From: Sulfolobales archaeon
GTDB lineage: Archaea; Thermoproteota; Thermoprotei_A; Sulfolobales; AG1
NCBI GenBank assembly: GCA_038867615.1
Contig: JAWBYA010000005.1
Coordinates: 1 to 64,000, forward strand
Length of the DNA: 64,000 nucleotides
Reading direction: 5' to 3'
Translations under genes and position numbers: made by a program
The notes under the pieces: model-generated
Told to the model about the DNA's origin: nothing
Seen by the model: only the letters and a program-made list of their open reading frames with translations
Databases searched by the model: none
Shown: positions 7,491 through 62,363 of the stretch, piece by piece
Layout of the letters: every line of letters begins with the position of its first letter
Numbering within the stretch: position 1 is the first letter of the stretch

Positions 7491-7495
7491 TCACA

Positions 7496-10944: not shown

Positions 10945-11041
10945 ATCTACCTCGATAACTAATATCTATCCAAGCTAATAAGCTAATCTATATAAATAGA
11001 TAGTAACTTAATATAAAAAATTTGATAGATTTACTTTATAG

Positions 11042-14315: not shown

Positions 14316-14412
14316 CTCTACCGAGAGATCATTCGTCGAACAGCCTGGAGTAGGTGAAAACCAGCCTAGCTTAATATTTATAACTATCTAGGCTTAGTAG
14401 TGGGGGAGTGGT

Positions 14413-15902: not shown

Positions 15903-16026
15903 GTCCGATCCAGCTTAGGCGCGCTGCAGGTCCTCGCGGACCCCACAGCACGCCTAACGCGGCCGGCTTAACTTCCGGGTTCGATACGAGTCCGGGTGTT
16001 TCCCGGCCGCTATGGCCGGATCGGAC
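15903..16026 (-). rRNA. rrf: 5S ribosomal RNA
   Basis: GGCCATAGCGGCCGGGAAACACCCGGACTCGTATCGAACCCGGAAGTTAAGCC core; terminal helix GTCCGATCC/GGATCGGAC; length ~124 nt. Confidence 0.95.
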
Positions 16027-45855: not shown

Positions 45856-46573
45856 GGTTAAAAGGAAACTCATAGAAGATGGAAAGAGAAGAGATGGTAG
45901 AGGACCTGAGGATATAAGGCCACTCCACTTCGAGGTAAGGGTTCTTAAAAACGCCAACGGATCCGCTCTTGTGCAGTACGGAAACACAAAGGTTCTCGCA
46001 GCAGTCTATGGACCCAGGGATCCTGGGGCTAGGAGTATGGCTCTTCCCCACAGAGCCGTGCTTAGGTGCAGATACCACATGGCTCCTTTCTCAACGCATG
46101 AGAGAAAGAGCCCTGCACCGAGTAGGAGGGAGATAGAGCTTTCAAAGGTTGTTAGAGAGGCTCTAGAACCAGCTGTGATTACGGAGAGTTTTCCCAGAAC
46201 AGCTATAGATATATTCATAGAGGTTCTCAACGCCGATGGAGGGACAAGGACTGCTGGTATAACAGCCGCCTCTCTAGCTCTAGCCGATGCTGGGATCCCT
46301 ATGAGGGATCTTGTCGCAGCAATAGCCGTTGGAAAGGTTGACGGGGTTCTCGTGCTCGACATAAATGAGGAGGAGGATATGTATGGCGAGGCTGACATGC
46401 CCATGGCCTTCATGCCAAGCCTCGGACTTATAACCCTGATCCAGCTAAACGGTACTCTAAGCGAGGAGGAGTTCTGGTCAGCAATAGAGCTAGGGCTTAA
46501 GGGTGCTGAGAAGGTGTATGAGGCTCAGAAAGAGGCTCTGAGAAAGAGATACGCGTCTGTAGAGCAGGTGTAG
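45836..46573 (+). CDS. rrp41: Exosome exonuclease Rrp41
   Basis: [36 protein letters not shown]. Confidence 0.97.
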
Positions 46574-46576
46574 CCT

Positions 46577-47410
46577 ATGTCCATAACCCCTGTCGATATA
46601 CCCGTCATACCAGCCCTCAAGAGGACAGCGATACTAAACCTGCTATCAAGATCCCAGAGGATAGATGGAAGATCTCCTTCCGATACGAGAAATATAGAGA
46701 TAAGCCTGGGCGTGATACCAAACGCTAACGGTTCTGCCCATGTAAAGCTTGGATTAACACAGGTTATAGCCGGGATCAAGGCTGAGATAGGTTCTCCCTT
46801 CCAAGACACTCCTAATATGGGTAACCTGATAGTTAATGCCGAGTTCGTACCACTAGCCTCGCCAACATTCGAACCAGGTCCTCCTGATGAGAGGGCGATC
46901 GAGCTCGCAAGGATCATTGATAGGTCTTTGAGGGATGTGAGGGCAATAGACCTTGAGAAACTCGTTATAATACCCGGCAGGAAGGTTTGGAATATATTCA
47001 TAGATATCTATGTAATAGATCACGACGGAAACCTCGTCGACGCCTCCTCTATAGCAACCCTAGCAGCGCTACTATCGGCAAAGATACCAAGAGCCTCTGT
47101 TAACCAGGATAAGGGTGAGGTGATCCTCGACCCGACGAATCGCGACGAGATCCCTGTGAGAAAGAGGGTTCTCACAGTGACAGTGGCGAAGATCGAGGAT
47201 CACCTAGTAGTAGATCCTTCGCTTGAAGAGGAGACAGTGGCTGACGCCCTGCTAACCATGGCCTTCTCGGAGGATGGGCTGATAACAGGGATCCAGAAGA
47301 GCGGTATGGGTACCTTTAAGCGGGAGCATTTGAAAAAAGCTATGGAGCTTGCTAAAAATGCCTATAAGAGCTATATTTCCCAGATCTCCCAGTTTTTAGC
47401 CAGATCTTAG
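46577..47410 (+). CDS. rrp42: Exosome subunit Rrp42
   Basis: RIDGR, PLASPTFEPGPPDE, DHDGNLVD, IQKSG. Confidence 0.97.
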   Translation: MSITPVDIPVIPALKRTAILNLLSRSQRIDGRSPSDTRNIEISLGVIPNANGSAHVKLGLTQVIAGIKAEIGSPFQDTPNMGNLIVNAEFVPLASPTFEPGPPDERAIELARIIDRSLRDVRAIDLEKLVIIPGRKVWNIFIDIYVIDHDGNLVDASSIATLAALLSAKIPRASVNQDKGEVILDPTNRDEIPVRKRVLTVTVAKIEDHLVVDPSLEEETVADALLTMAFSEDGLITGIQKSGMGTFKREHLKKAMELAKNAYKSYISQISQFLARS

Positions 47411-47413
47411 TAG

Positions 47414-48862
47414 CTATCTTTGATCTTTATAGCTATATGTTTGAAGACCTGCTACACCGAGTCTTGCTAGCTCTTCGAGAACGATCTCTCTGATCTCTTC
47501 GTCTCTTAGAGGCTCCCGGGCTCCATTGCTATAGCGCTTAACTATCCTTTCATATATCCTCTTCACCAACTCGCTATTCTTCTCAACCCCTATCCCTAGC
47601 TTTCTGTTTATCCAGTAGGCTATTCCTGAGGTTCCTGAATAAGGCCCTATAAGGATCCTCGGCTCTCTCCCAATCATCCCTGGATCGAATGATAGATATG
47701 TAGCCGGGTTTTTCACCTGGGCATCTATATGTATCCCAGCCATGGTTGAGAATGCATTCTCACCCACTATAGGCTGGTATCTCGACACCTCATGGCCGAG
47801 TTCTTTAAAAACCTCTGCTGCCCTCCCTATAGCTAGTGGGTTCATGCCTCCGAAGTCTCCTTTAAGCCTGGCATAGATCATTACGAGGGCCTCTATGGGT
47901 ACATTACCAGCCCTCTCACCTATGCCGAGAAGGGTTGCGTTGTTTATAGATGCACCATAGATCCATGCAGCGACAGCGTTCGCAACCCCCATGTAGTAGT
48001 CACCATGCCCGTGGAACTCTATCTGCTCGGGCCCTAACCCAGCTATTTTTCTCAGAACCCAGACTAGCTTTGGAATCGAGTATGGCAGTGCTGCGTGTGG
48101 GTATGGAACCCCGACTCCTGTGGTGTCTGGGAGCTTTATGGTTATGTTAACACCGTATTTCTCGCCCAGCCTGACCAATCTCCTCACCAGGGGTATTACG
48201 AGGCCTGGGACATCTGATCTTGTCACGTCCTCCAGACTGCATCTAAGGTTTATACCACTCCTCATAGCATGTTCAACCACATCGAGATATTTCGCTATGG
48301 CCTGATCCCTTGTCAAACCCAGCTTATACCTTATATGTATATCCGAGATCGACATCAACAAAACCATCTCATCGAGCCCAGCCTCTCTAACCCTAGCTAC
48401 ATCATCCCTAGAGGCCCTCCCCCACCCAATTATCTTGGGATATCTATGCCCAAGGCCCCTGAGGATCTCTACGATAAGCCTGTCCCTCTCGGTATATAGG
48501 AAGAACTCGCTCCTAGAGATCCTCCCGCTACCGTTATCAAGACCCACGAGAAGCTCGAAGATCTTTCTAGCCTCTTCAGGATAGAGAGCTCTGAATGACT
48601 GCTGCCCATCCCTAAATGTCGTGTCAGTTATATATAGCTCCTCCGGCGTTAATGGATCTACGGAGATCCCGTCGAGCACTACCCCAGGAGGGTTGGGCCA
48701 CGAGGCTTCTTGGGGATCTATCTCCCTTATCTCATCTATACCCTCGCTCCTCAATAGGTTGAGGAATATCTCTCTAGCCCTCCTATCGAGGGTCGCTTCA
48801 ATAAGGATGCACCAAAACCTCTCACTATCACGGCTTATAAGCATTAGCGTAATACGATCCAT
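47414..48862 (-). CDS. DRE-TIM metallolyase, Re-citrate synthase-like (LeuA superfamily)
   Basis: ITDTTFRDGQQS, SEFFLYT, SISDIHIRYKL, LEDVTRSD, FHGHGD, GIGERAGN; no LeuA regulatory domain. Confidence 0.8.
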   Translation of the reverse strand: MDRITLMLISRDSERFWCILIEATLDRRAREIFLNLLRSEGIDEIREIDPQEASWPNPPGVVLDGISVDPLTPEELYITDTTFRDGQQSFRALYPEEARKIFELLVGLDNGSGRISRSEFFLYTERDRLIVEILRGLGHRYPKIIGWGRASRDDVARVREAGLDEMVLLMSISDIHIRYKLGLTRDQAIAKYLDVVEHAMRSGINLRCSLEDVTRSDVPGLVIPLVRRLVRLGEKYGVNITIKLPDTTGVGVPYPHAALPYSIPKLVWVLRKIAGLGPEQIEFHGHGDYYMGVANAVAAWIYGASINNATLLGIGERAGNVPIEALVMIYARLKGDFGGMNPLAIGRAAEVFKELGHEVSRYQPIVGENAFSTMAGIHIDAQVKNPATYLSFDPGMIGREPRILIGPYSGTSGIAYWINRKLGIGVEKNSELVKRIYERIVKRYSNGAREPLRDEEIREIVLEELARLGVAGLQTYSYKDQR

Positions 48863-49023
48863 ACGTGTTACGGAATGTTATTAGGCTAGTATGCTTCTAA
48901 CCATTGTTTTTCGTAATACCAAGCCCTGGTGAAGCTCCACGCTTTACAAGCCAGCTATATATTAGTATCTAGTGGATCTTATTACGTAGAGGGAGTGGTA
49001 GCCGAAAGTATTGAGGTGATCTT

Positions 49024-49563
49024 TTGAGACTATTCTCACACATAGTGGCCGGGATAGGGGCGGGATCTATAGCCTCTATGCTATATGGAAACCACTATGG
49101 AGCCTTCCTCTATATAGTAATTCTATCGTTTGTGATAAACATCATAATAGATCTTGGTCACACAAGGATCAGGGGTATTGTTATACGAAGCCCCTACACT
49201 CATGAGGCTCTGAACAGCATAGTGATATCGATCCTGGTAGGATCTATAGTGTGGATAGCGATCGGCAACCTATACGGAGTATCGCTACATGCATCCCTCT
49301 CGGCATCACTCCTAATATCAGGATCACACCTACTAGGGGATCTAATAACCAGGGGCGGGATCTATGTGAGGATCGGTGCAAATATGCTAAGAATCTCCCT
49401 CGCCGACTATAGCTATAAAGATCCCCTTGCTAACGCGATCTACGTGGCGATCCTATCACTACCATTAATAATAAGCCTTGCCGGGATCGCAAGCAGCCCG
49501 AGCGAGATACCCTGGTATAGTCTAGTTGATAAGCTAGTCGGCATCTATGGAACCGCTGGCTAG
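49024..49563 (+). CDS. Membrane-bound metal-dependent hydrolase-like protein (YdjM-like)
   Basis: H at the N-terminus, IDLGH, RSPYTHE, SHLLGDLITRGGI. Confidence 0.75.
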   Translation: MRLFSHIVAGIGAGSIASMLYGNHYGAFLYIVILSFVINIIIDLGHTRIRGIVIRSPYTHEALNSIVISILVGSIVWIAIGNLYGVSLHASLSASLLISGSHLLGDLITRGGIYVRIGANMLRISLADYSYKDPLANAIYVAILSLPLIISLAGIASSPSEIPWYSLVDKLVGIYGTAG

Positions 49564-49717
49564 TGGTTTTACTAATAGATAAAAGCCAGCTGTTAGTCGA
49601 TAACCGCTCCCTATATATGATTCTTCCAAGGGCTTGGGAGAATATTTAGTGGATCAAAATAAACGTGACGGGCTAATAGTTTTAAACCCTGAGCCGCTAT
49701 ACTATGTAGTGCTCCTC

Positions 49718-50668
49718 ATGCCCGCCAATAATCCACAGACCAGCGGTTCGGGGTCTAGTGGTGCTAGGCTTCCTGTAATAAGGTTTGAGGAGGAGATGCA
49801 TAACCTTGTCTCGGTTGCTAGTGAGCTCATAGAGCAGGAGAAAGAGTTTGCTGTGGTGATGGTGCTTAGATCCCAGGGATCCTCGGCTGTAAAGACAGGG
49901 GCTAAGGCTATAGTGCTTCCGGAGGGTAGGATTATAGGCTGGCTGGGCGGGTGGTGCAGTGAGAACGCAGTGCTTACAGCAGCTTTAGAGGCTCTTGAGA
50001 AGGGGACTCCCAAGATAGTGAGGCTTGTTATGAAGGGTGATGAGCTGAGAAGGATTGGGGAGGATGTTATAGAGGTTGGAACCCCGTGTGGGGGTGAGGT
50101 TGATATCTATATAGAGCCTGTATATCCAAGACTACAGCTCCTCCTTGTGGGTGATAATGAGGTGACAAGGATGCTTGCGAAGATCGGAAAGATCCTGGGC
50201 TATAAGATCGCGGTATATGATATGATGGCAACCAAGGAGAAATACCCAGAGGCTGATATCATAATAAACTCCCCCTCATCCCTCGAAAAAATAAGGATAG
50301 ATAGGAACACAATAGCAGTCCTAGCCACCATGGGGAAGACATGGGTTGATGAGGAGACCCTCGAGAGGCTCCTAAAAACAGACATCGGGTTAATAGAGCT
50401 CATATCAAGCACCAAAAGAGCCCAGGAGATCCTCAAACTACTCATTAAGAAGGGATACAGACCAGAGGATCTCAGAAGAATAGTAACACCAGCAGGGATA
50501 GATATAGGAGCCATATCGCCTGGAGAGATAGCTATCAGCGTGCTAGCAGAGATCATCATGTCCCGAAGAGGAGGCAGTGGAAAAAGCATGAGGGAAGTGA
50601 AAGGAGACCCCCTCGCGAACATCCTCAGCGCCATAGAGAGCCCAGCCCTCTCCCAACCCGAGAAATAA
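49718..50668 (+). CDS. XdhC/CoxI family molybdenum-hydroxylase accessory protein
   Basis: GWLGGWCSE, CGGEVDIYIEP, PAGIDIGA.SPGEIAISVLAEI. Confidence 0.92.
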   Translation: MPANNPQTSGSGSSGARLPVIRFEEEMHNLVSVASELIEQEKEFAVVMVLRSQGSSAVKTGAKAIVLPEGRIIGWLGGWCSENAVLTAALEALEKGTPKIVRLVMKGDELRRIGEDVIEVGTPCGGEVDIYIEPVYPRLQLLLVGDNEVTRMLAKIGKILGYKIAVYDMMATKEKYPEADIIINSPSSLEKIRIDRNTIAVLATMGKTWVDEETLERLLKTDIGLIELISSTKRAQEILKLLIKKGYRPEDLRRIVTPAGIDIGAISPGEIAISVLAEIIMSRRGGSGKSMREVKGDPLANILSAIESPALSQPEK

Positions 50669-50758
50669 TACTCCTCCCTATTATCGAGGATACAGTTTCA
50701 AAACGATTCAAAAACCGGGCAAGCCGACCTGCTAATCGAGAGAGGTCTTACAAATCTA

Positions 50759-52042
50759 TCAAATGCTATATAGCTCGGAACCCTGGATCACATGATCCGA
50801 GGCTCTTCTCGTCTTATACCAGTCAACCCTTCTCATAAAGATCGCTAGCACGGCTGCTACTGACATTAGGATCCAGTATAGGGGTATTGCGAGGGCGTGG
50901 ACAGCAAGATCGATCCCTCTCCTAGGGCCTTTATTGTTTGCAACGGCTAGCATTATAACAAGCAATGGTAGCAAGCCCTCTATGAATAATACTACAAGCA
51001 TGGATCCATAGGGGGCTAGTGTGATGGTGATACCATTATTAGCACTAGACCCGCTGTCATGGGTAGAGCCTCTGGCTATATAGGACATGGTCATCAGGAT
51101 CGTTATTACCGATAGGACCAGCGATGTCACAGCAACTATGGGTCCTAGATAGCCTATCGATGCTTTAAGCCTTCTCCTACCCCCATAGATCAGGATCCTG
51201 GCTAAACACTCAAGATGACCCCTATACCATCGTATCCTCTGCCTAATATGACTCGTAATATCTAGAGGTGCGGCCTCCTCTACATAGGAGTCTAGCAACC
51301 CGATCCTATATCCCTTCTCGAAAAGAATGAGGGAGAGGTAGGCATCCTCCGCGAGCTTCTCCGGAAAACCGCCAAGCCTCATCAAAACCTCCTTCTTTAT
51401 ATAGAGCCCCTCTCCGCTCAGGGGTACGTGGAAGCCAGCCTTTCTCAGAGCATTTATCACCAAGTCGAACCATATAACGGTATCTATATAGATCATCTTG
51501 CCCAGCACCCCCTCACCATATCTATAAACCCTAACACCCAGAGCATCGTAACCCCTACTGCTCATGAGCCTCACAGCCTCCTCAAGCTGGTTCTCATCAA
51601 AAGAATCATCGGCGTCATATACAGCTATTATGCTACCGGAAACCCTATCTATAACCTGGTTGAGAGCCCTAGCCTTAGAGCTCCTCCCACCCTTAACAAC
51701 ATAGATCCTAGCATCAACCCCCCTGCTTCTTAGAAACTCAAGGGCTTTTTCGGCACCCCTCAGGGTCTCTTGATCCTCTTCCTCTACTATGAGCCACACA
51801 TCATATAGATCCTTGGAGTATCTCTGCCTAGCAATGCTTGAAACAGTCCTCATAATAGATCCTGGTTTCTCCATGTATAGAGGGATAAGGATAGACACCC
51901 TATGCTGCACACTGTTTTTCTCACCACTAGTCCGGGATGGTTTCTCGTAAGAGCCACGCTCCCTGCTAGCGCTATATATAGCCACCCATATTAGGGCGCT
52001 GAAGCCTAGGTAAGTTGAGAGAAGCACCATTTCAAGTGACAT
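50759..52042 (-). CDS. Family 2 glycosyltransferase (processive, cellulose-synthase-like)
   Basis: KARALN, YDAD, LAED, QRIRW; flanking TM helices. Confidence 0.9.
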   Translation of the reverse strand: MSLEMVLLSTYLGFSALIWVAIYSASRERGSYEKPSRTSGEKNSVQHRVSILIPLYMEKPGSIMRTVSSIARQRYSKDLYDVWLIVEEEDQETLRGAEKALEFLRSRGVDARIYVVKGGRSSKARALNQVIDRVSGSIIAVYDADDSFDENQLEEAVRLMSSRGYDALGVRVYRYGEGVLGKMIYIDTVIWFDLVINALRKAGFHVPLSGEGLYIKKEVLMRLGGFPEKLAEDAYLSLILFEKGYRIGLLDSYVEEAAPLDITSHIRQRIRWYRGHLECLARILIYGGRRRLKASIGYLGPIVAVTSLVLSVITILMTMSYIARGSTHDSGSSANNGITITLAPYGSMLVVLFIEGLLPLLVIMLAVANNKGPRRGIDLAVHALAIPLYWILMSVAAVLAIFMRRVDWYKTRRASDHVIQGSELYSI

Positions 52043-52141
52043 GTATCATTACCAATGATGATTCGTGAGAGGAGATATATTTCATAAACCCAGGGCTGGG
52101 TAGCGAATAGTATAGATGCTGTTTATAAACCAGAGTAAGAT

Positions 52142-52435
52142 CTATAGGAGCTTCTCTATAGCTTCTTTGAGGTTCTGGGCGTAGGTTTTAGCCTCAATAA
52201 GGATCTCTATGAGCACGTCAACAGGATCTCTCGTCCCGTCTGTTATGATAACAACCCTTGGTTGCGATGTTTGGGGATGATCCACTATATATGCGGCATA
52301 GCTCACATATGGTTTCCTAATAGCCAGCTTGGATATTAGGTTAGGTATTCCATGCTGATCCCCCGTTAGTGTGAATATAAGCTCTCTATCGCTTCTCTTC
52401 TCAATCTTGATCCTCGGGATCAGGTCTATAGACAT
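52142..52435 (-). CDS. rpoL: DNA-directed RNA polymerase subunit L (Rpo11)
   Basis: GDQHGIPNLI, VSYAAYIVDHP, ITDG..DP. Confidence 0.85.
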   Translation of the reverse strand: MSIDLIPRIKIEKRSDRELIFTLTGDQHGIPNLISKLAIRKPYVSYAAYIVDHPQTSQPRVVIITDGTRDPVDVLIEILIEAKTYAQNLKEAIEKLL

Positions 52436-52496
52436 TGCCCCTTCCTATAAAGCTAGCGTAACCAGCTATATATTTATAAAGCAGACCCCGGATCCT

Positions 52497-53114
52497 TTAT
52501 CTAATGATCTGGAGCACTATTGATATAGCTATGAGGGCCACCGCTATATAGAGTATCCTTAACGATGGATCACCAATATAGATACTAACCTCCCTCGGGA
52601 TCTTCTTTACAGCCTGCCTCTGAACAACCTTCTGAGGCTCTTGATAGGATAGCTCGAGCTCCGAGTCCCTGTCAAGGAAAACCTGTTTCTGAACAGCAAT
52701 ACTCCCCTCTATAGATAGCCTCACAATATACTCCCCCTCGGCTAGGTTGAAAGCGATCTCCTTGGGATTAACCCTCTCCTTCTCGGAGTAGTTGCTACCT
52801 ACCACCTCTACTACGGCATCTTTAGGGATATTCTTACCCTTCACCTTGACAGAAAGCCTATAGATCCTAGGCTCTCTGAGCCATCTCGGTTCAACTAGAT
52901 CGTGGCCCAGAACCCTCTTTCCATAGCTGTTTATCTCATCAACAAGATCCCTATAGATCTTATAGATCTTCATCTTGGTCTCGTAAGGAGCGCCAGATCT
53001 TAGAACTATAACGTTATAGCTACCCTTAAGCATTTCAAAGGACTCTACCACCACCTCCTCGCTACACATACCGTCAGAAGATCCGCAGGATCTCCACATA
53101 CTATCCCTCAGCAT
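52497..53114 (-). CDS. Hypothetical protein with C-terminal TM anchor
   Basis: Beta-sandwich-like middle (LAEGEYIVRL), terminal TM. Confidence 0.65.
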   Translation of the reverse strand: MLRDSMWRSCGSSDGMCSEEVVVESFEMLKGSYNVIVLRSGAPYETKMKIYKIYRDLVDEINSYGKRVLGHDLVEPRWLREPRIYRLSVKVKGKNIPKDAVVEVVGSNYSEKERVNPKEIAFNLAEGEYIVRLSIEGSIAVQKQVFLDRDSELELSYQEPQKVVQRQAVKKIPREVSIYIGDPSLRILYIAVALIAISIVLQIIR

Positions 53115-53498
53115 AGCCAGCGTGTTAGCAACATCCCTCTCATAGTTATCGCTAGGATCTAGAATGCTTATATATTTATTAATAATCCTGGATATTATGT
53201 AGTGAAGATCAACCTTCCTGCTTATACCGGCAACCCCAAAATAATATGGGATAGAAATTCTTTTATATTAATAGCACCGCAAGGCATAACCAATATAGAA
53301 AGATCCCGTGTTCTTTACCCCGATCCCCCAGCACAGAGATCCTTTCAATTTTTAGCTCTAAGTTGACCTGGGCTAGGTTTATGAACCGTACTTGCTCTCT
53401 CTTCTAATCTAACCAATGTATCTTGCCAGGATACTCGCGGGGGTGTGTAACTGATAGAAGATCTTTAAAGGCACGCTATATCACATTGCATGATAAAA

Positions 53499-53513
53499 CA
53501 GAGAAGTTTATAA
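53499..53513 (+). promoter_or_regulatory. BRE/TATA promoter of the nuclease-helicase operon
   Basis: AGAGAAGTTTATAAG ~27-33 nt upstream of ATG 53540. Confidence 0.55.
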
Positions 53514-53539
53514 GCTTGCTAGCGTCATAAATCGATAGT

Positions 53540-56500
53540 ATGAAGAATCTTACAAGCTTTTTAGGTCTCATATTTGAAGGAGCCTTTAAGATCGGTTTTA
53601 TGGAGAACAAGCTCCCGAAGGACGAGTATGAGAGGTTTGAGAAGGGCGTTTTCGAGTATATAAAGAGCAGGGCAGGTGATCGTGACCTTGAAGAGATCCT
53701 TAAAGACATAGAGGAAAGCTTTCGGTATTCCATGTATAGAGAGCCTCCGAAGAATCTTAGCGAGCTAAGCAGGCTTTTGAAGCAAAGATATCAGGAAGAG
53801 CAGACTAACGGTACTATAAAGAGAGAGTGGAAAGAGATCTATACCAAACTTATCTTCCTCATAGGATATTGGGGAGGTCTTTTCTATGGCAGGAAGTTCA
53901 AAGACGCAGAGGTGAAGAAATACCATATGGGGGAAGAGTCGGGTTCTGATATAATATGGGGTAATGCTGATCTCGTTTTCATAGAAAAGAATACTCTCCA
54001 CGTGGTGGATTTCAAGCTGGCTGGAGCGATCAGTTCTCTAAGAAGAATGCTCTTGGAAAGAGAAACAGTAATCCCTGTACCGACCTATGGTATCCCAGTA
54101 AACCTATCACTCGGAGAACTGGAGTTCTCGGGGTTTGTTGAAAAACTCCTCTTAGTAGAAGAAAGGCTTAGAGAGACCGAGGATGTATTTATAGAGACAA
54201 AAGGGCTCTTACAAACAACATGCTATGCTGTGGATTTCCTCTGCTCCGAGGAGAGAGATATAGAGGAAGTGAGCCTAGAGCTCTTATACCCAGTCTCCGA
54301 GCCGCTTAACCTGCGGTTTTCCGTAGGCGATAGAGGGAAGCTTAAAGACTATCTAGCGAGGATAAAGGATCTATATAGAGATATAAGGGAGAAAGAAAGT
54401 CTCTACGACAGGATCAGCTACGCAAGCTTATATAGAAAGGATAGGCTGAGAGCCGATATTGAGCGGATTGTGAAGGAAATGAGGAAAAGAGAATCAGAGA
54501 GGATCTCTATAAAAGCGGGCGATATAGCACAGGTTAGAGCTGACGTGAAGAAAAGACTCGAGGACTTTGTGAAGAGGGAGGATGATTGCAAGGCTATAGC
54601 CCTGCTCCACTCCGCGGGAAGTGGAAAGACGAGGAGCGCGAGGGAACTGATCCTCGACTTAGGCGGAAAGCATATAGTTCTTTACATGACAACACGCCTA
54701 CGCATCCTGGAGAGAGAATATAGGGTGTTAGAAAAACATTCTGAAGAGACCGAAAAGAGAATAGCGATCGTATACAAGAGAAGAGTAGGCAAAAGCGGGG
54801 GGTTCGTAAAGCACAAGGGCAAGGCTTACGAAGAGGTGGGAGGCAAGCAAGAAGGCATACTTCTATCCACAGTGAAAGAGATAGTAAGGCTTGCCCAAGA
54901 GGGTGAATACGATCAAATATGGGCCTTTACAACCATACAAGCAGTGGTTGAAACAGCCTTTGGCAAAACTTCAAACCACCTTGAAGAGCTCATGAGACCC
55001 ACCATTAAGGAAAGATACAACATCCATATAATCCTCGACGAGTTCCTCGGCTATAAAAACGGCCTCTACGCTGTAATAGAGATGTTAGATTTCGCCAGAA
55101 GATTCAAAGAAGGCGGTGGACGGATAAGCCTTTATCTTTTCGATGCCAACGGCTACTCCCCAGTTATTATGAAGAGACTGCTTGATGAGTACGAGAAATT
55201 CGGAGTATTACCAGAGGCCGTAGTGCTGGGTGAATACCAAGAGGAGCTGAAAACCGTCTACAAAGACATCCCCCTCGAAATATTCGCTAAACATGGCTAT
55301 CCGTCTGGACAGCTCTATCTATATAAGAAGTTCCTGAGGATCTCTAAAGAGAAGGAAAAACCAGAGAAGCTCGCCCAATATATACTAGATACTTTTAAAG
55401 ATAAGAAAAGCACCGCGTTTGCTTTTATACAGGATAAGGAGCTCATAGCAGAGCTATCCCAGATCCTTACAAAGCATAATTTATCCACATTGATAGCAAC
55501 AGCAAGTTCGGAGAAAAGCCAGAAGCAGATAAACGAAGGAGAAGAAGATGTGATACTAGGAACATCGTCTATCTCGAGAGGACTTGATTTTAGCAGGAGC
55601 CACAAGCCGGTGGACTATATATATGTGTTTATCCAGAGCTGGGGAATAGAGGGCAACCTGGTAGAGATACTACAATCCATATCGAGGGCTAGGGGGGATG
55701 AGGAGACCGAGAAGAGGGCAAAGCACGTGCATCTAGTCTATCTCATAAGCGATGAACACACAGACTATAGAGTGGATAACATACTGGCCACGTTAGAGAA
55801 TCCAGATAAGGATATCGTGAGACTTGTATACGAGAAAGAACATCTAGAGAGCTTTCTAGATCTCGACGATATTGTGACCAGGATAATAGAGCAGTTCGTC
55901 TCAAAACCTTCTGACAAGGTTCTCGTACCTATCTCGACACAGCATAGGAGTATATATAGGCCTAACAAGATCTCTGACTTTGAGGGTGTAATGACCTTCC
56001 TTGAAGATGTATATGCTATGGAGAAGAATGATAGAGATATATATAGACTTTTAGAAGAGCTAGGAGGCTCTATCTACACCTACTCCACACTACCCGAGCT
56101 GGGAAGACTCAATAGATTTGACTATTACCACCCCTATATACTTATCGACGAGCACCCAATATACATGGCTATGGTTGAAAAGGAAAAGAGACATGAGATA
56201 AAAAAACTCTTGAGGAAAGTAAGCAATACGCTCAAAAAACATAATAGAGAAAGAACGGAGAACGTGGAGAAGTTCATAGAAGATCTAATAACCCCCGAAG
56301 AGAGTAAAGCCCCTGTACTCATCCCCATATACTCTCTCGTCCTGGTAAAAAACTGGCTAGGACGAGATGAGGGAATAAGTTTCAAGATAAGGAAGAAAGT
56401 TGGAAGGGGACATGCAGAAGTCCTGGGAGGCCATTTAGAGCCGAGAACCCGGTGCTTTGTCGGTGACCGTATAGAGTACGCCTGCATACCCCTGGAAGAG

Positions 56501-56581
56501 GACTACCCATATAGAGAGATCCTTAGCGGGAGGTTCGCCAAATTCCCCGTAAGATTTATAAAGAGCCTCCTGGAGGCGTAG
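53540..56581 (+). CDS. PD-(D/E)xK nuclease fused to a superfamily 2 helicase
   Basis: GNADLVF..VVDFK and QTTCYA (RecB-like); HSAGSGKT (I), YMTTRLRI (Ia), TTIQ (Ib), ILDEF (II), FIQDK (IV), GTSSISRGLDF (V), QSISRARG (VI). Confidence 0.85.
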   Translation: MKNLTSFLGLIFEGAFKIGFMENKLPKDEYERFEKGVFEYIKSRAGDRDLEEILKDIEESFRYSMYREPPKNLSELSRLLKQRYQEEQTNGTIKREWKEIYTKLIFLIGYWGGLFYGRKFKDAEVKKYHMGEESGSDIIWGNADLVFIEKNTLHVVDFKLAGAISSLRRMLLERETVIPVPTYGIPVNLSLGELEFSGFVEKLLLVEERLRETEDVFIETKGLLQTTCYAVDFLCSEERDIEEVSLELLYPVSEPLNLRFSVGDRGKLKDYLARIKDLYRDIREKESLYDRISYASLYRKDRLRADIERIVKEMRKRESERISIKAGDIAQVRADVKKRLEDFVKREDDCKAIALLHSAGSGKTRSARELILDLGGKHIVLYMTTRLRILEREYRVLEKHSEETEKRIAIVYKRRVGKSGGFVKHKGKAYEEVGGKQEGILLSTVKEIVRLAQEGEYDQIWAFTTIQAVVETAFGKTSNHLEELMRPTIKERYNIHIILDEFLGYKNGLYAVIEMLDFARRFKEGGGRISLYLFDANGYSPVIMKRLLDEYEKFGVLPEAVVLGEYQEELKTVYKDIPLEIFAKHGYPSGQLYLYKKFLRISKEKEKPEKLAQYILDTFKDKKSTAFAFIQDKELIAELSQILTKHNLSTLIATASSEKSQKQINEGEEDVILGTSSISRGLDFSRSHKPVDYIYVFIQSWGIEGNLVEILQSISRARGDEETEKRAKHVHLVYLISDEHTDYRVDNILATLENPDKDIVRLVYEKEHLESFLDLDDIVTRIIEQFVSKPSDKVLVPISTQHRSIYRPNKISDFEGVMTFLEDVYAMEKNDRDIYRLLEELGGSIYTYSTLPELGRLNRFDYYHPYILIDEHPIYMAMVEKEKRHEIKKLLRKVSNTLKKHNRERTENVEKFIEDLITPEESKAPVLIPIYSLVLVKNWLGRDEGISFKIRKKVGRGHAEVLGGHLEPRTRCFVGDRIEYACIPLEEDYPYREILSGRFAKFPVRFIKSLLEA

Positions 56582-56584
56582 AAC

Positions 56585-58930
56585 ATGTACGAAAGCAGGT
56601 TCGTAGAGAAGGATGAGAGGCTCGATCTGTTCGCAAGAGGGGAGCATGTGGGAAGTGACTTTATCTATGCTGGTATGTTCCACAACTACCAGGACGGATT
56701 CCTACAGAGCCTTGCTAACTATTTCTATAGACTCCTGAAGGGAGAAGATCCCGATAGGGTAGGAAACGAGCTGAGAGAATTCCTCTCAAATAGCAGAAAA
56801 GCTATTGGCGGGAATGCCATATACCGTAAAAAAGAAGTCTTAGAGCTAGGAGGCCCTTTCTCTATCTATAAAGGCGATAGAGAAGCAGGTTTCCCGAGAT
56901 ATAAAGAGAACTCGAGCTTCAAGATCTTCGAGCTTAAGGTAGGCACACCATCCGATATGGATAAAAAATCCGGGCTCGTGTTTCTAAAGATAAAGGGCTA
57001 TGAAGATAAGAAGCTCGACCAGAAGGTAGTGTTATCTGCAAGAAGAGACCTTCTAGACGAATGGATCCGCCTCACAGATGATAATAATGTGAGGAGCTAC
57101 CTAGAAGAGGTCAGGGAGGTATATAAGATCCTAGAGGGGTTCCCACTACGAAGAAACGAGCCTCTATCGAAACTTGCTTTTTACCTCTTCCCAATAGAGC
57201 TAAGCAGTTTTGAAAACATCACTATTGTCTCAAAGGTAAGCCTCTATAAGAGGAGGATAGAAACTAGGACAGGTCTATGGGAGGATATAATGAAAAACCT
57301 GAGTAAAGAAGATAGAAAAGATCTCGAATTCTCGCTGGAAAAGCATGGAAAAACACTGGATCATCTGAAACGCCTTCTAGATGAAGCACTATTACCGAAA
57401 AATCTCGACCTTCTTCGCAAAGACTGGAAAAAAGTTATAAAGAAATTCCTGAGAGGCGAAAGTAACAAGATCGAAGCGGTGTTCGTAGGCAAAGCTCCCC
57501 AGGAGGATAAGCACCCTCAACTCTCCTTTGGAAGATATAGAGTCCCTAGCGCTGATCTAGAGCTCTCAGTGTTTGTTGAGAAGGATTTCCAGATGGGGAG
57601 TTATGATAGTGATGGTATAGCGAAGATGCTGAGCACCGCTTTCTCAGGCTTCAAGTTCCTTGGAAATGTGAGGGTGAGGATAAACACAGAGAAAATAAAT
57701 AACCTAGAGTCGTTATTCGGCGGCGAGGATCTCTTTAGGCTTATAAGAGGAGATCACGCGCCAAAGAATATTAATAGGCTAGAGAATACCGACTCTATTA
57801 ACCTCATACATTCCCTTTGTTACTTCTCAACAAAGATCCTTAGCCTGGCGGGGAAGATAAAAGAGGAAGAACATAGGGGGAGATTCCATGGAGCACTCTT
57901 GATCCTCAATACCGAGTTGAAAGAGGAAGAGAGATATCTTCTCTGGGATGCTGTGAGGCTAATATATAGCTACTTTGGAGTCCCGATCCAGACCGTGACA
58001 AAAAGATCTCTTAGAGCTATGCTAGATAACGAAAAACGTAACGCTGTGATCAAGAATCTCCTTATAAGCCTCTACAAAGACACCAAAACCCTGGAGATCC
58101 ATTTTAGCAACCTCAGACTCCCGAAAGACGTCGTGGTCTATGCAGTTATAGAGAAACCGTCTTCCAGCTTTTTCTACCGGAAAGGCGAGAAAAGCGATAG
58201 AGCAAGACACTATCTCTATGAGATCTATAGGATAGAGATAAAGGATAAATACGCGACAGTGGAACTCGAGAAAAAAATCTTCGAACTATGGGGGGCAGAA
58301 TACTCTGAAATAGAGATGTGGCTGAAGCGCAATATGGAGCACAAGAACACCAGGTTCTGCTTAATAACAGCCTTGAGAGACTCTAGGCTTTGCAAACTAT
58401 ACGATGAGTTGGTGAACGCGGAATCCAAGGATAGGTTTTTAGTGATAAGATATGATGAGCTAAAAACAGCATATTTCTCTGAAAAGACTGAGAAGGATTG
58501 CTATATCATATACACAGAGGAGTTGGAGAAGCTTATAGAGAGACTGGGGATAAAGCTACAAGGTAGTGAAAGAAAAGCAGTCCTGGCCATAAAGCCCGCC
58601 CATATAAAGGCTATAGAAGACGTGGATGAGGAGCTATACCACCCATCCCTCCAGCTCTTTTTCACCGAAAGAATAGGCTGGGAGAGAGACGAGACATACT
58701 CGGAGAGAAAGGATCTCTTTATCTTTACAGTGCTCGCCCTCTCTATGTTTGAGAGCGAATCTTTCCAAACACCATATAGCAAGCTCGACATATGGGAAAA
58801 GACAAGGGACATCCATCTAGCTATACAGAGAGATCATAAAGAGTATATCTTCGCCCTAATACCAACGCTATACGAGATGATAAACTTCATAAAAGATATG
58901 CCAAGACCCCCGACAGAGCCGAGAAGCTAG
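56585..58930 (+). CDS. Divergent Argonaute/PIWI-like protein, probably catalytically inactive
   Basis: 781 aa; MID-like signature YLLWDAVRLIYSYFGVPIQTV...IKNLLISLYK followed by RNase H-like beta strands without the G-x-D catalytic aspartate; 3 nt after the helicase stop. Confidence 0.6.
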   Translation: MYESRFVEKDERLDLFARGEHVGSDFIYAGMFHNYQDGFLQSLANYFYRLLKGEDPDRVGNELREFLSNSRKAIGGNAIYRKKEVLELGGPFSIYKGDREAGFPRYKENSSFKIFELKVGTPSDMDKKSGLVFLKIKGYEDKKLDQKVVLSARRDLLDEWIRLTDDNNVRSYLEEVREVYKILEGFPLRRNEPLSKLAFYLFPIELSSFENITIVSKVSLYKRRIETRTGLWEDIMKNLSKEDRKDLEFSLEKHGKTLDHLKRLLDEALLPKNLDLLRKDWKKVIKKFLRGESNKIEAVFVGKAPQEDKHPQLSFGRYRVPSADLELSVFVEKDFQMGSYDSDGIAKMLSTAFSGFKFLGNVRVRINTEKINNLESLFGGEDLFRLIRGDHAPKNINRLENTDSINLIHSLCYFSTKILSLAGKIKEEEHRGRFHGALLILNTELKEEERYLLWDAVRLIYSYFGVPIQTVTKRSLRAMLDNEKRNAVIKNLLISLYKDTKTLEIHFSNLRLPKDVVVYAVIEKPSSSFFYRKGEKSDRARHYLYEIYRIEIKDKYATVELEKKIFELWGAEYSEIEMWLKRNMEHKNTRFCLITALRDSRLCKLYDELVNAESKDRFLVIRYDELKTAYFSEKTEKDCYIIYTEELEKLIERLGIKLQGSERKAVLAIKPAHIKAIEDVDEELYHPSLQLFFTERIGWERDETYSERKDLFIFTVLALSMFESESFQTPYSKLDIWEKTRDIHLAIQRDHKEYIFALIPTLYEMINFIKDMPRPPTEPRS

Positions 58931-59149
58931 ATCATGAGGCGTGAACGGAATCAACCAACACTAGCGGGAACATGAACCTGTCTAACATATCCTATCCTAG
59001 TTCTAGCATATTGTGAGACTTCTAAGCACTCACAACGGTTATACGCTTATGTCTCGCCCGTTCCAGCGATCTATAGCCCATACAGCCCCCATATAGACCC
59101 ATGGAGAAATAGTCTAGAGCAACATAGGATGCCACGCTACATTGCTCTC

Positions 59150-60589
59150 CTAACCCTCCTTGGGCTTGGCGGAGATGTCGATAAGTCCTCCTACGATATC
59201 TGCACCGATTCTCAGTGTTCCTTTAGGGCTCTTCACCCTGGCTAGAGCTTCATCTATATCGATCCTAGCAAGCCCTCCTGTTCTTGAGATACTGCTCTCA
59301 ACCTTGATCGTTTTAGGAACTCTTGCCTTCAGATCCAGTATTCCTCCGGAGACATCGAGGTCTATCGATGATTCTCCCTCGAACTCGCCGTATGATAGAT
59401 CGAGCACTATTCTGCCACCACTGATCTCTAGCTCAACGCTAGATGCCCTCATATCTGTCGATGATATATTGGCAACCGAGCCCGTGAGATGACATGCCAT
59501 TCTCTTAACCCCGCTGAGGCTTATATCGATATACCCTCCACTCGCATCTAGATCCAGTGCTTCCAACCCGGTCTTAGGGGCTTCTATGACTGCCTCGCAT
59601 CCCGAGAGATCTATGCTTAGCTCTCCATCATCTAGATCTAGATCGTATTCGCACTTACTCCTCCACCCACCCCTCTCGTATATAGTCACCGCGGCATCGC
59701 TTCTATCGCTCGGGCTAATCCTAGCTATGCCCCCGCTCATATCTATCGATATGCTTTTAACGTTGGGGAAAGACTCTTTCAGGAGTAGAGCGCCCCGCTG
59801 CCCGAGATCCTTATCCTCAATAGATCTTAGTATCGGTGCTAGGCTCTTCATAACGTTGGAGACAGCGTTAGAGACTATGCTGGAGATAAATGCGCCTAGA
59901 GAGCCTAGAAAGGGGCTTAGTATAGCAGCATGCCCCCCACCCTCCTTTCTATCCTTGCTAGTGATCCAGAACACATCTCTACTCTTAAGCTGGGCTATCG
60001 GCAAGATCTTATCGGGTACTCTTAACGTGAACACGTCTCTTATACTCTCCACAACCTCGTCAAACAACTCTGGCTCAACATCATCGCCTACTTTAACCTC
60101 GAATACATCGGTTATGATTAGCCTCCTCCCCTGAACCCTGATCCTCTCAAGCATCTCTCTATTCACGGTGAGCGAGAACATATCGCTTATAATCACAGGT
60201 GTACCAGGCGTACCAGGTGTAACCCGATCCCGGGGCTCGGCAGGCTTAGCCACGCCCGGGGTTTCAACTATCCTTTCAGAAGACCTCTTCTCCTCATCCC
60301 GCTTTATACTCTGCTTACCAGCACCTTTTATAATACTATAGGCCCTCCATCCAAGCTCTGTTAGCTCGTAAACACCTTTCTCGTTCTTCCTTATAAAACC
60401 AGCCATTCTTCTTAGATGAAACGTCATTGTACCAGTATCGCTCACCCCAGCATCATCCATAAGCTCTGTAAAGCTCCTGGGACCCTTCTCAGCTATGCTC
60501 TCAATTATCTTCCTCCTAATCCTGTGACTCGCTACCAGAAAGATCCTATCGATATCCTCATCTCCACTATACTCCTCCTCACCCACCAC
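59150..60589 (-). CDS. ArsR-family HTH regulator fused to a DUF4097/adhesin-like beta-helix repeat domain
   Basis: SHRIRRKII, SFTELM, GTMTFHLRRM, YELTELG; repeated xDxSGG motifs at the C-terminus. Confidence 0.8.
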   Translation of the reverse strand: MVGEEEYSGDEDIDRIFLVASHRIRRKIIESIAEKGPRSFTELMDDAGVSDTGTMTFHLRRMAGFIRKNEKGVYELTELGWRAYSIIKGAGKQSIKRDEEKRSSERIVETPGVAKPAEPRDRVTPGTPGTPVIISDMFSLTVNREMLERIRVQGRRLIITDVFEVKVGDDVEPELFDEVVESIRDVFTLRVPDKILPIAQLKSRDVFWITSKDRKEGGGHAAILSPFLGSLGAFISSIVSNAVSNVMKSLAPILRSIEDKDLGQRGALLLKESFPNVKSISIDMSGGIARISPSDRSDAAVTIYERGGWRSKCEYDLDLDDGELSIDLSGCEAVIEAPKTGLEALDLDASGGYIDISLSGVKRMACHLTGSVANISSTDMRASSVELEISGGRIVLDLSYGEFEGESSIDLDVSGGILDLKARVPKTIKVESSISRTGGLARIDIDEALARVKSPKGTLRIGADIVGGLIDISAKPKEG

Positions 60590-60602
60590 GATCCCCTAAT
60601 CA

Positions 60603-60705
60603 TCATGAGCGACTCGTCATGAATATACCTTTTGACGAGACCCCTCATCAAAAATCCCGGAGAGTTTGACGAGACCACCCAACCTATGGGTTTATAGGTG
60701 ACGAG
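60603..60705. promoter_or_regulatory. Divergent promoter with repeated operator half-sites
   Basis: Palindrome TTTTGACGAG-ACCC-CTCATCAAAA (60630-60653); further TGACGAG half-sites at 60613 (rc), 60667 and 60699; TTTATA at 60691. Confidence 0.65.
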
Positions 60706-60729
60706 CCTCTCCACACAACAACGGGGGCT

Positions 60730-61635
60730 GTGTTGGGATCCGGGGATGCTGTTATAGCCGAGGGTCTTGCGAAACAATACCCCGGCGGTGTTTGGGGGGC
60801 TAAGAGTGTGAGCTTCTCCTCAAACTATGGTGAACTGATCGTTATCCTAGGCCCCAACGGGGCTGGGAAGACTACCACTATAAACATGCTCACAACACTG
60901 ATCAAGCCCAGCAGTGGTAGGGGTCTTGTTGGTGGATATGATATCGTGGGTGAGCGTGATAAGGTGAGGAGGATCGTGGCCCTCATGCCACAAGACGCTA
61001 GTATGAGTAGTGATTGGACACCCTATGAGGCTGTCAAATGGTATCTCGTCGCAAGAGGCTTCAGTATCAGTGATGCTGGGAGGGAGGCTAGGATCTGGCT
61101 TGAAGAGATGGATCTATACGATGCTAGGAATAGACTCGGATGGTGGCTCAGTGGTGGTCAGAGGAAAAGGGTTCTCGCAGCTATGGTGCTCGCAACAAGA
61201 GCCCCAGTGATCTTTCTCGACGAGCCTACAAGTGGTGTTGATGTTGAGGGCAAGTATAAGGTTTGGAGCGCGATTAGAAGGGCCTGTAGAGATGCTAGGG
61301 CTGTGATATATACTACCCATGATATGAGGGAGGCTGAGCTTGTTGCTGATAAGGTTGTCATGATCGGTGAGGGTAGAACTATAGTTATTGGAAAACCAAA
61401 AGATCTAGTAGAGGGACTACCATTTAAATATAAGATTGTCTTGAGGGGTAAGGCTAACCATCCAGAGGGCTCGGTTGCAGAGCTGAGTGTGGGGGATATC
61501 ATGATAACATATTATAGGGATAGGAGCGATGCTATAAGAGCCCTGGATTCGATAGAGACTAGCGCCTCTATAGAGCCTGTATCGCTGGAGGATGCTTATC
61601 TATACTATGTAAAGATGAGGGGTGGGGGTAGATGA
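60730..61635 (+). CDS. ABC-2 type exporter ATP-binding protein
   Basis: GPNGAGKTT, LSGGQ, FLDEPTSG, TTH, SLEDAY. Confidence 0.95.
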   Translation: MLGSGDAVIAEGLAKQYPGGVWGAKSVSFSSNYGELIVILGPNGAGKTTTINMLTTLIKPSSGRGLVGGYDIVGERDKVRRIVALMPQDASMSSDWTPYEAVKWYLVARGFSISDAGREARIWLEEMDLYDARNRLGWWLSGGQRKRVLAAMVLATRAPVIFLDEPTSGVDVEGKYKVWSAIRRACRDARAVIYTTHDMREAELVADKVVMIGEGRTIVIGKPKDLVEGLPFKYKIVLRGKANHPEGSVAELSVGDIMITYYRDRSDAIRALDSIETSASIEPVSLEDAYLYYVKMRGGGR

Positions 61636-62363
61636 GCCCAATAGCGTTTCTAAGAGGAGTAATAGGTGTAGCTAGGCTTGAGGGCGCGTGGATTGTTAGA
61701 CAACCCTCATGGATGATCCAGGTAATATTGATCATGACGGGCTTCGTAGTACTCCTCTGGGCCTGGGGAGGTGTGAAGGGTCTGGGGTATATGATATCGG
61801 GCTGGATGATCGCCAGTGCTTTCTCCACAGGCGTAAACATAATGGGACAGATCGTTGGGTGGGGTAGGGTTACTAGGATTATTGATCTCTTCATAGTATC
61901 CCCCATAACCCCTATAGCCTACTTCACAGGCTCGCTGATCGGCAGCCTCGCTATATTCCTAGTAGACGTAACGATCTTCACATCAATAGGGCTCTTAACA
62001 GACTATCTCTCCCTAGTAATCTATAGCTTGATCGCCTCATTATTAGTGCTCCCAATAGGTGTTCTTCTAGGACTCTCAATAGTGTTTCGGGTGAAGAAGC
62101 CGACAAATATAAGCGCTATAACAAACCCCGTAGCCTCCATAATATCCTTCCTACCACCGGTCCTCTACCCAGCATCAATCCTGCCAGAGCCTTTGAATGT
62201 AATAGCATGCCTAGCACCAACAGCAGCCGGGGCTGAGCTTGCAAGAACTCTCAGCGGTCTCGGCTCTCCACTAGATCCCTTACTACTAACCGCTATATTG
62301 CTAGCATGGATAGCCATCCTGATCATACTATCCCGAAGGATCATCCTATGGTCTCTAGAATAA
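61632..62363 (+). CDS. ABC-2 type exporter permease
   Basis: Six TM helices, PVLYP..ILP motif; overlaps the ATPase gene. Confidence 0.88.
   Translation: MSPIAFLRGVIGVARLEGAWIVRQPSWMIQVILIMTGFVVLLWAWGGVKGLGYMISGWMIASAFSTGVNIMGQIVGWGRVTRIIDLFIVSPITPIAYFTGSLIGSLAIFLVDVTIFTSIGLLTDYLSLVIYSLIASLLVLPIGVLLGLSIVFRVKKPTNISAITNPVASIISFLPPVLYPASILPEPLNVIACLAPTAAGAELARTLSGLGSPLDPLLLTAILLAWIAILIILSRRIILWSLE

Follow-up and report, generated by a model that had tools for sequence, protein, structure and literature searches.

In a 64,000-nt stretch of contig JAWBYA010000005.1 (assembly GCA_038867615.1, positions 1 to 64,000, forward strand) of a Sulfolobales archaeon, hereafter called the window, we found a conserved pair of adjacent genes that is probably a defence system. 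The first (gene 1, 53540..56581, + strand, 1013 amino acids (aa)) encodes a superfamily 2 (SF2) helicase fused to a putative N-terminal nuclease, and the second (gene 2, 56585..58930, + strand, 781 aa) encodes a protein predicted to fold like an Argonaute. The pair is real, but it is not a new principle, and the kind of system, i.e. an Argonaute-like protein with a helicase and a nuclease, is already known from DdmDE, ApsAB and pPIWI-RE. The reading that we favour, and which we consider reasonably likely, is that gene 2 is a guide-directed Argonaute-like sensor that recruits gene 1 as a Cas3-like nuclease-helicase. An earlier reading of the window from its letters (the sequence-only reading) had put the pair forward as a candidate new system. 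It matches no described system in Pfam, NCBIfam, PADLOC or the literature searched, and no description of this gene pair was found in the main texts that the search covered, the supplements to the papers on ApsAB and pPIWI-RE lying outside its scope.

Predicted folds and conserved motifs

As the sequence-only reading had proposed, gene 1 is an SF2 helicase, and it carries a RecB-type set of motifs at its N-terminus. Its helicase core (residues ~346-750; 54575..55789, + strand) has two RecA-like domains with Walker A (GSGKT at 360-364, within SAGSGKT), DExx (DEF at 500-502, DE being 500-501) and motif VI (Q712..R716.R718G719), as supported by structural matches, Helicase_C matches and conservation. 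The AlphaFold2 model of the protein has a mean predicted local distance difference test (pLDDT) of 84 and a predicted template modelling score (pTM) of 0.84. A Foldseek comparison of this model with the PDB gave 558 matches at E<=1e-3, and those listed were all generic SF2 helicases (DEAD-box, Ski2/Brr2, DEAH, type I-F2 interference complex, MrfA, DinG, RecQ/BLM and UvrB). Helicase_C was matched in 34/34 gene-1 members at E<=1 (best 2.6e-7), and ResIII in 10/34. For gene 1 of the window the library scans gave weak helicase matches only: Helicase_C at 19.5 bits (E 1.2e-3), which is under the 23.5 cut-off, ResIII, and the type IV DinG and Cas3 models of PADLOC/NCBIfam on residues 600-688. Across 103 distinct gene-1 homologues, conservation is 97% or higher at each of G360, G362, K363, T364, D500, E501, Q712, R716, R718 and G719, and in the long C-terminal signature of the protein. 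The only conserved cysteine in these 103 sequences is C972, and therefore gene 1 has no iron-sulfur (Fe-S) cluster of the DinG/XPD type.

Residues 1-290 (53540..54409, + strand), which precede the helicase core, form a helical N-terminus and a putative PD-(D/E)xK nuclease domain of RecB/Cas4 type. Its motifs are NADLVF (D144), VVDFK (D157, K159) and Q225xxxY229, and the nuclease-type set D144, D157, K159, Q225 and Y229 is likewise at least 97% conserved in the 103 homologues; E219 and K221 are also invariant. Judged from the alignment, the conserved motif residues of gene 1 are not chance occurrences. Secondary structure assigned to the model by DSSP consists here of a helix (95-119), strands 124-127, 145-149 and 152-158, a helix (163-172), a strand (175-178) and a helix (218-236). 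The D, (D/E)xK and QxxxY residues are thus predicted to follow one another on a beta-hairpin and the helix after it, which is the order of the RecB/Cas4-type motif. In the language-model features of the ESM Atlas, which we take as a lead only, three PDDEXK_1 clusters were at the top with 0.86. When the nuclease domain was compared with 11 archaeal Cas4 proteins by hhalign, only the D..(D/E)xK hairpin was aligned, and not significantly (probability 3.5% and 0.5%). The Cas4 four-cysteine cluster is absent from gene 1. One hhalign pairing would make E219-x-K221 the Cas4 ExK motif; D157-x-K159 was preferred, as it forms the hairpin with D144 and shows a near-identical local pattern in another alignment. 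The nuclease that had been read from the N-terminal motifs thus stands as regards the motifs, the predicted secondary structure and the weak language-model lead, and it gained neither a Pfam match nor a significant hhalign match. A weak match to the nuclease-domain profile elsewhere (G055, E 2.3e-5) proved to be a coiled-coil protein that matches NERD only marginally, and it was dropped.

The remaining part of gene 1, residues 751-1013 (55790..56578, + strand), is a conserved C-terminal domain with the motifs YYHPY (862-866), GRG (955-957) and PLxExYPYxExLSGRF (984-999), for which Pfam and library scans, those of family members included, gave no family match. At the other end of the protein G9, E13, F16, K17 and G19 are invariant across the homologues, and because residues 9-19 hold these positions the gene start at 53540 is right. 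The database form of the protein (P0011, 993 aa) starts 20 codons later and is probably too short by the 20 residues encoded at window positions 53540-53599.

Gene 2 has no family in Pfam or NCBIfam and gave one chance match in PADLOC. Its AlphaFold2 model (pLDDT 75.9, pTM 0.78) was built on 9 sequences. Foldseek comparison of this model with the PDB gave 45 matches at E<=1e-3, the best being the Argonaute of A. aeolicus (6.7e-8), and every match listed was an Argonaute, a short prokaryotic Argonaute (pAgo) system or a complex of which an Argonaute-fold protein is part. Among them were the Argonautes of A. aeolicus, T. thermophilus, M. jannaschii, Kurthia and human, the short pAgos of SPARTA and SPARDA, a yeast Argonaute lobe, and the Mediator kinase module, which contains the Argonaute-like Med13 (7KPV), a protein whose Argonaute fold is described in PMC12477606. 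The ESM Atlas has its own model of gene 2, for which the best structural match was a Piwi cluster, with 484 residues aligned and a TM-score of 0.46/0.51. In the language-model features of the same resource, pPIWI-RE clusters made up 6 of the 30 nearest (score 0.94, 201 shared features). Two independent predictors thus support an Argonaute-like fold of the MID and PIWI type for gene 2, in agreement with the pAgo-like assignment of the sequence-only reading.

The motifs on which that assignment had been based are present in the translation at GVPIQ (465-469), KN (490-491) and K498, and like those quoted for gene 1 they are conserved among the homologues (56 and 103 sequences, respectively). They lie in the MID-like domain (residues ~360-498; 57662..58078, + strand; limits read from the DSSP assignment of the model), with K501 just after it. 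Invariant in 56 distinct gene-2 homologues are Y451, W454, P467, Q469, K490, N491, S495, K498 and K501. Four distant relatives, found at E 1e-6 to 1e-12, have a near-invariant MID-type signature and keep these residues except for Y451F and P467S in P0149 and K498R and K501R elsewhere. In the hhalign comparison with archaeal pAgos the MID motif region was the sole aligned segment (probability 4-6%), and within it Y451 fell on Tyr, Q469 on Gln, N491 on Asn and K498 on Lys of the archaeal proteins. The N-terminal region, residues 36-360, showed no recognisable relation to PAZ or N domains in Pfam and library scans.

The PIWI-like region with a predicted RNase H fold (residues ~499-781; 58079..58927, + strand) was assigned from the whole-protein Foldseek matches and the order of strands and helices. 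Its invariant residues in the 56 sequences are E523, S526, Y548, K670, H686, Q690, F692, S724, R749 and E764; the distant relatives keep E523, E725, R749 and E764, and do not keep H686. Alignment of this part to pAgos by hhalign, with greedy and global settings, gave no usable result, and a catalytic tetrad can be proposed by spacing only. E523 (56/56) would be the first position, D599 (D in 36, E in 11, N in 4 and K in 2 among those listed) or A596 the third, and E707 (E in 35, Q in 11, R in 4) the fourth; the candidate second and fourth positions vary. The description of gene 2 as an inactive Argonaute is therefore not established, and because E523 is invariant gene 2 may itself nick or cleave, which would make a two-nuclease mechanism unlike that of DdmDE. 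The string LNTE (441-443) was considered as the first catalytic strand and rejected, as it sits in the MID domain.

Pairing, distribution and insertion of the cassette

The two genes are strictly paired. With the gene-2 profile, 55 metagenome loci were retrieved; 38 of them were able to show pairing, and a gene-1 homologue was directly upstream on the same strand in 37 of these (37/55 overall), with 6-109 nt between the matched stretches. One further locus holds a gene-1 remnant. As for the others, 12 end within 125 nt of the match, 2 have a 5'-truncated gene 2, and 2 have C-terminal remnants (~70-110 aa). Gene 2 was also downstream of gene 1 in 5/5 Aquificaceae loci fetched with gene 1. In 178 Aquificota species genomes searched at E<=1e-10, gene 2 was found in 38 and the gene-1 nuclease domain in 35, which divides the genomes into 34 with both genes, 4 with gene 2 only, 1 with gene 1 only (divergent) and 139 with neither. 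Of the four genomes with gene 2 only, two have it on a short contig, one at the edge of a contig, and one as a set of remnants. The conserved pairing that the sequence-only reading called for was thus found both in metagenomes and in species genomes.

The identity matrices of the two proteins (32 pairs) correlate with r=0.99, a value that 0 of 999 Mantel shuffles reached; since kin share history, this correlation means joint inheritance and not more. Gene 2 evolves faster than gene 1, the mean identity being 0.50 against 0.54. A predicted complex between residues 36-781 of gene 2 and residues 770-1013 of gene 1 had a score of 0.00, which has no bearing for or against binding. In a divergent Aquificota copy (G379, contig 28, ~13406-15942) the gene-2-like frame appears upstream of the gene-1-like one on the same strand, i.e. 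in reversed order.

For gene 1 we obtained 98 homologue clusters with 34-57% identity, of which 15 have a named organism: 10 Aquificota, 2 WOR-3/Caldipriscus and 3 archaea (Micrarchaeaceae, Thermofilaceae and Bathyarchaeia). For gene 2 an exhaustive profile search of 1.84 billion representatives found 43 proteins, so its family is small, and a homologue search at E<=10 returned the same 8 proteins again and no distant annotated relatives. A sister clade is nevertheless seen in one locus (L099, 7832-13476, minus strand; genome G363), where a 1068-aa protein is 25% identical to full-length gene 1 (E 7e-54) and is followed, with a 4-nt overlap, by an 813-aa protein 25% identical to the MID-PIWI part of gene 2 (E 5e-20). 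Similar proteins, of ~812-884 aa, occur in two further genomes (G351 and G353). Because of this clade and these similar proteins, the system family is wider than the 43 representatives suggest.

In the window the pair lies in an inserted cassette (53263..59149) of 5887 nt (~5.9 kb), in place of which a genome of the same genus (G003) has 55 nt. Window positions 45000-53262 align to positions 3810-12075 of the corresponding locus (L095) at 94.4%, and positions 59150-62027 to 12131-15000 at 93.1%. The GC content is 0.41-0.44 inside the insert and 0.47-0.50 in the flanks. No terminal repeats, target duplication, integrase or tRNA were seen at the cassette ends. The distribution is patchy: gene 2 occurs in 1/61 relatives, this being the window genome itself and none of the other 60, and in 1/301 genomes sampled from the archaeal phylum of the window (again its own genome only), as compared with 38/178 Aquificota species genomes (21%, about a fifth). 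The closest relatives of both proteins, with 53-57% identity, are from Aquificaceae, and the cassette therefore came from bacteria. The host is an archaeon, since the neighbouring genes include archaeal RNA polymerase subunit L. On these sequence comparisons the system is one of bacterial thermophiles that was transferred to an archaeon, and not archaeal in origin as had first been supposed.

Decayed copies were also found: L015 has frameshifts in both genes, L008 has a split gene 1 and L042 a split gene 2, an internal deletion in L053 joins the start of gene 1 to the middle of gene 2, and the gene-2 C-terminal remnants of ~70-110 aa mentioned above are in L057 and L059. Viral contigs scanned with the gene-2 profile gave 84 pattern matches, none of which was confirmed. 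Sequencing runs carrying the window DNA, several of which may represent the source sample, are metagenomes of hot springs and sediments, and none of the runs listed is of RNA.

The operon layout given by the sequence-only reading is borne out by the open reading frame (ORF) list: the two genes are separated by 3 nt (56582-56584), both on the + strand, and the genes bordering the pair are on the reverse strand (52497..53114 and 59150..60589). A TTTATAA element at 53507-53513, its centre 30 nt 5' of the gene-1 ATG, is preceded by the purine-rich AGAGAAG; together they form an element at 53500..53513 (+ strand) which, by consensus resemblance only, fits an archaeal B recognition element (BRE) and TATA box with a near-leaderless transcript. 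A GGAGG at 56572..56576 (+ strand), similar to a Shine-Dalgarno sequence, lies within the gene-1 3' end, 9-13 nt before the gene-2 ATG. A short inverted repeat with a 7-bp stem at 59010-59034, ~80 nt past the gene-2 stop and within the insert, may be a transcript end signal. Upstream of the pair there is a 205-aa protein without family and then RNA polymerase subunit L (RNA_pol_L_2, E 2.4e-12), and downstream there is a DUF7347/helix-turn-helix (HTH) protein. The 205-aa ORF (52497-53114, minus strand), with rpoL on one side and the insertion on the other, matches no Pfam family apart from a marginal PEGA match, and it is kept in the same-genus genome, where the flank aligns at 94%. The sole Rfam match in the window at gathering thresholds is a 5S rRNA gene (15905-16023, minus strand; RF00001, 70.8 bits).

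Neighbouring genes, of which some were picked by hand and others are from the 5 Aquificaceae loci, are mixed. In L012 (4578-7007) a type III Cas10 starts 9 nt past gene 2, in L034 (9592-14074) a type I Cas3 and a Cas5-fusion protein are near the pair, L003 (3615-6791) has a PLD-SNF2 helicase, and L010 (7885-8664) has a ParB_N/GmrSD_N-like protein. The genome of the window carries Cas4. In L001 (6208-8004), L004 (6229-8004) and L005 (4098-5873) the pair directly follows lepA (EF4) and overlaps its end, which points to insertion recurring at this spot or to read-through out of a housekeeping gene. LepA was considered as a third component and rejected, since it is the housekeeping EF4.

Proposed mechanism and alternative explanations

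The pair behaves like defence genes because it is a 5.9-kb insertion against an empty site, is confined to one of the relatives and one of the phylum genomes, has its closest relatives in another domain of life, and shows decayed copies and some defence neighbours. In the mechanism that we favour, the cassette would be a self-contained, horizontally moving two-gene immune module with a presumed defence phenotype. Gene 2, as a very divergent member of the Argonaute/PIWI proteins, may hold a small guide nucleic acid by its 5' end in the MID-like pocket and, once loaded, could recognise complementary invader DNA, the nature of both guide and target being presumed. Target-bound gene 2 would then recruit or release gene 1 through a presumed contact between the two proteins, and gene 1 would unwind and degrade the invader processively, as DdmD and Cas3 do.

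Several results weigh against this reading. The Foldseek TM-scores of gene 2 are low (0.22-0.31 by query and at most 0.48 by target, the latter for short pAgos), and they come from the model built on few sequences. Pfam models of Argonaute and pPIWI-RE, PF02171 included, matched 0/22 gene-2 members at E<=5, and the nuclease families PDDEXK_1 and Cas_Cas4 matched 0/34 gene-1 members. Sequence-profile searches of the PDB with both proteins found nothing relevant, gene 2 giving two chance matches only. The hhalign probabilities against Argonaute and Cas4 profiles were 0.5-5.7%, with 5.7% for gene 2 against 8 archaeal pAgos. Gene 2 lacks the Lys that the classical Y-K-Q-K pocket has at Y+4; its position 455 is D, N, E or S. 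PADLOC gave no system match for the window. The flanking genes of other loci are mostly housekeeping genes (6/10 of those picked by hand), and lepA is adjacent in 3/5 Aquificaceae loci. Finally, in one locus (L019, 1953-4322) the 1994 nt upstream of an intact 789-aa gene 2 contain no gene 1. This is the sole intact solo gene 2 seen, and a 300-aa reverse-strand ORF stands there in the place of gene 1.

The alternative that survives best is that the pair is a far-diverged branch of pPIWI-RE in which the restriction-endonuclease and helicase genes have become fused. It has the same mechanism and overlaps the favoured reading, and we consider it unlikely, if a serious candidate. The order nuclease, helicase, PIWI is that of the strictly conserved triad as PMC3702460 presents it, and the nearest ESM Atlas feature clusters given above include pPIWI-RE. 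R749 and E764, which are invariant in the C-terminal PIWI-like part and are kept in the distant relatives too, echo the R and E after which pPIWI-RE is named, the positional equivalence being putative. Opposed to these points, the models PF13032, PF13111 and PF18157 match 0/22 gene-2 members even at E<=5, PF13032 matches none of the 178 Aquificota genomes although gene 2 is present in 38 of them, and the helicase of gene 1 lacks the Cys-rich Fe-S region. PF13032 was also unmatched in 14 control genomes and in the genome of the window, where PF02171 (Piwi) was unmatched as well, so that this genome has no canonical Piwi or pPIWI-RE gene.

The conservation of the MID-like pocket bears on a second alternative, in which an Argonaute-fold gene 2 without a guide senses a DNA structure or a 5'-phosphorylated end and hands over to the nuclease-helicase, for defence or for DNA-end processing, and is not programmable. 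The missing Lys of the Y-K-Q-K pocket and the lack of a recognisable PAZ/N relation in residues 36-360 would agree with this, and Med13 is an example, as described in PMC12477606, of an Argonaute fold without an Argonaute-like nucleic-acid interface. However, Y451, Q469, K490, N491, K498 and K501 are invariant in the 56 sequences and nearly so in the distant relatives, which is the pattern of a pocket in use, and we regard a guide-free gene 2 as improbable.

AddAB/RecBCD-like end processors combine a RecB-type nuclease with a helicase, and a DNA repair, recombination or replication-restart module made of a helicase-nuclease and an accessory factor would resemble them, would suit the position after lepA in 3/5 Aquificaceae loci, the numerous housekeeping neighbours and the presence in about a fifth of Aquificota species genomes, but is very improbable given the 1/301 phylum genomes and 1/61 relatives, the clean insertion against an empty site, the transfer between domains of life, and the pseudogenised copies and remnants.

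Beyond the favoured guide-directed reading, we tentatively propose, at somewhat short of an even chance, that the pair represents a lineage of its own, so far undescribed, within Argonaute-superfamily immunity, with a sensor too diverged to be picked up by any sequence profile. This lineage, which may be an offshoot in thermophiles close to pPIWI-RE, would have a Cas3-like, nuclease-first PD-(D/E)xK helicase, would be common in Aquificota and have crossed into archaea, and would act as a thermostable, guide-programmed, processive DNA degrader. If this is true, there is a lineage with a different domain order that is invisible to sequence-based defence finders (Pfam, NCBIfam and PADLOC as tested), and Argonaute-type immunity may be under-counted, above all in thermophiles. 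DdmDE and ApsAB, in which an Argonaute-like sensor is combined with a helicase-nuclease, have themselves only recently been recognised as plasmid killers. The cassette is also a clear case in which probable defence genes passed from bacteria into an archaeon and a genus-mate still has the empty site. If the system is guide-directed, its hot-spring proteins could be used as heat-stable programmable DNA-targeting tools.

Comparison with known systems

The precedents for the pair are DdmDE, ApsAB and the pPIWI-RE triad, in so far as they are described in 10.1101/2024.05.10.593530, PMC13618286, PMC11096173 and PMC3702460. The architecture found here, with the nuclease first, fused to the helicase and without DinG Fe-S cysteines, differs from all of them, as the sequence-only reading had noted for DdmDE and pPIWI-RE. 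DdmDE of Vibrio cholerae and ApsAB of E. coli ST38 resemble the pair in having two genes, an SF2 helicase fused to a PD-(D/E)xK nuclease first and an Argonaute-like protein second, and in that the Argonaute-like protein is missed by the usual Piwi profiles, as is gene 2. In the model given in PMC13618286 a guide-loaded, catalytically dead Argonaute recruits the helicase-nuclease of DdmDE, and ApsB is described in PMC11096173 as needing its MID-type motif for function. The nuclease of DdmD and ApsA is C-terminal, whereas the D..DxK..QxxxY residues of gene 1 are at 144-229, before Walker A at 360-364. Gene 1 with its 1013 aa is also shorter than the 1100-aa cut of the ApsA survey as stated in PMC11096173. 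ApsB has the Lys at Y+4 of the MID motif, unlike gene 2. The hosts here are thermophiles (Aquificota, WOR-3 and a few archaea), as opposed to Proteobacteria, cyanobacteria and Lactobacillus for DdmDE/ApsAB. Sequence comparison gave no relation to DdmD or DdmE in the PDB sequence profiles beyond the generic helicase C-domain, and none in PADLOC. Both the PDB and PADLOC 2.0.0 as searched presumably contain DdmD and DdmE. Neither protein was among the Foldseek matches listed for gene 1 or gene 2.

In the pPIWI-RE systems, as set out by Burroughs et al. 2013 (PMC3702460), the activities follow one another in the order nuclease, helicase, PIWI, as they do in the pair, and the genes of both overlap or almost touch. 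Common to the two are also a diverged PIWI-type protein whose MID-type pocket is conserved, an extensive N-terminal part that has no relation to PAZ, and a patchy spread like that of horizontal gene transfer. Each has an invariant R and E, putatively at equivalent positions. The pPIWI-RE systems are made of three genes, whereas here there are two, with the nuclease and helicase in one polypeptide. The pPIWI-RE helicase has the DinG Cys-rich region that gene 1 is without, the nuclease has a Zn-ribbon/HTH of which there is none on gene 1, and the pPIWI-RE Pfam models do not match gene 2; the present system also occurs in archaea.

Cas3 of type I CRISPR-Cas has the same order of nuclease, SF2 helicase and C-terminal domain and is recruited by a separate guide-bearing module, and the weak PADLOC/NCBIfam matches of gene 1 (Cas3, type IV DinG) are on its second RecA domain. 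The nuclease of Cas3 is an HD nuclease and its partner is Cascade, in contrast to the putative PD-(D/E)xK nuclease and the Argonaute-like partner here. Unlike in Cas3 systems, no CRISPR array or cas genes are in the cassette.

The long-B and short pAgo systems (BPAN, SPARDA) are similar in pairing a possibly non-cleaving Argonaute with a nuclease. Their nuclease partners are separate. They act by collateral degradation or abortive infection, in contrast to the pair, which has a presumably processive motor. Helicase-containing PD-(D/E)xK proteins in pAgo operons are described by Ryazansky et al. 2018 (PMC6299218; og_6, og_34 and og_37), and the pAgos of that survey, like the long-B and short ones, match the Piwi profile while gene 2 does not. 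With its fused, nuclease-first helicase and its Argonaute-fold partner, the present family offers a test of shared origin against convergence of pPIWI-RE, DdmDE/ApsAB and itself.

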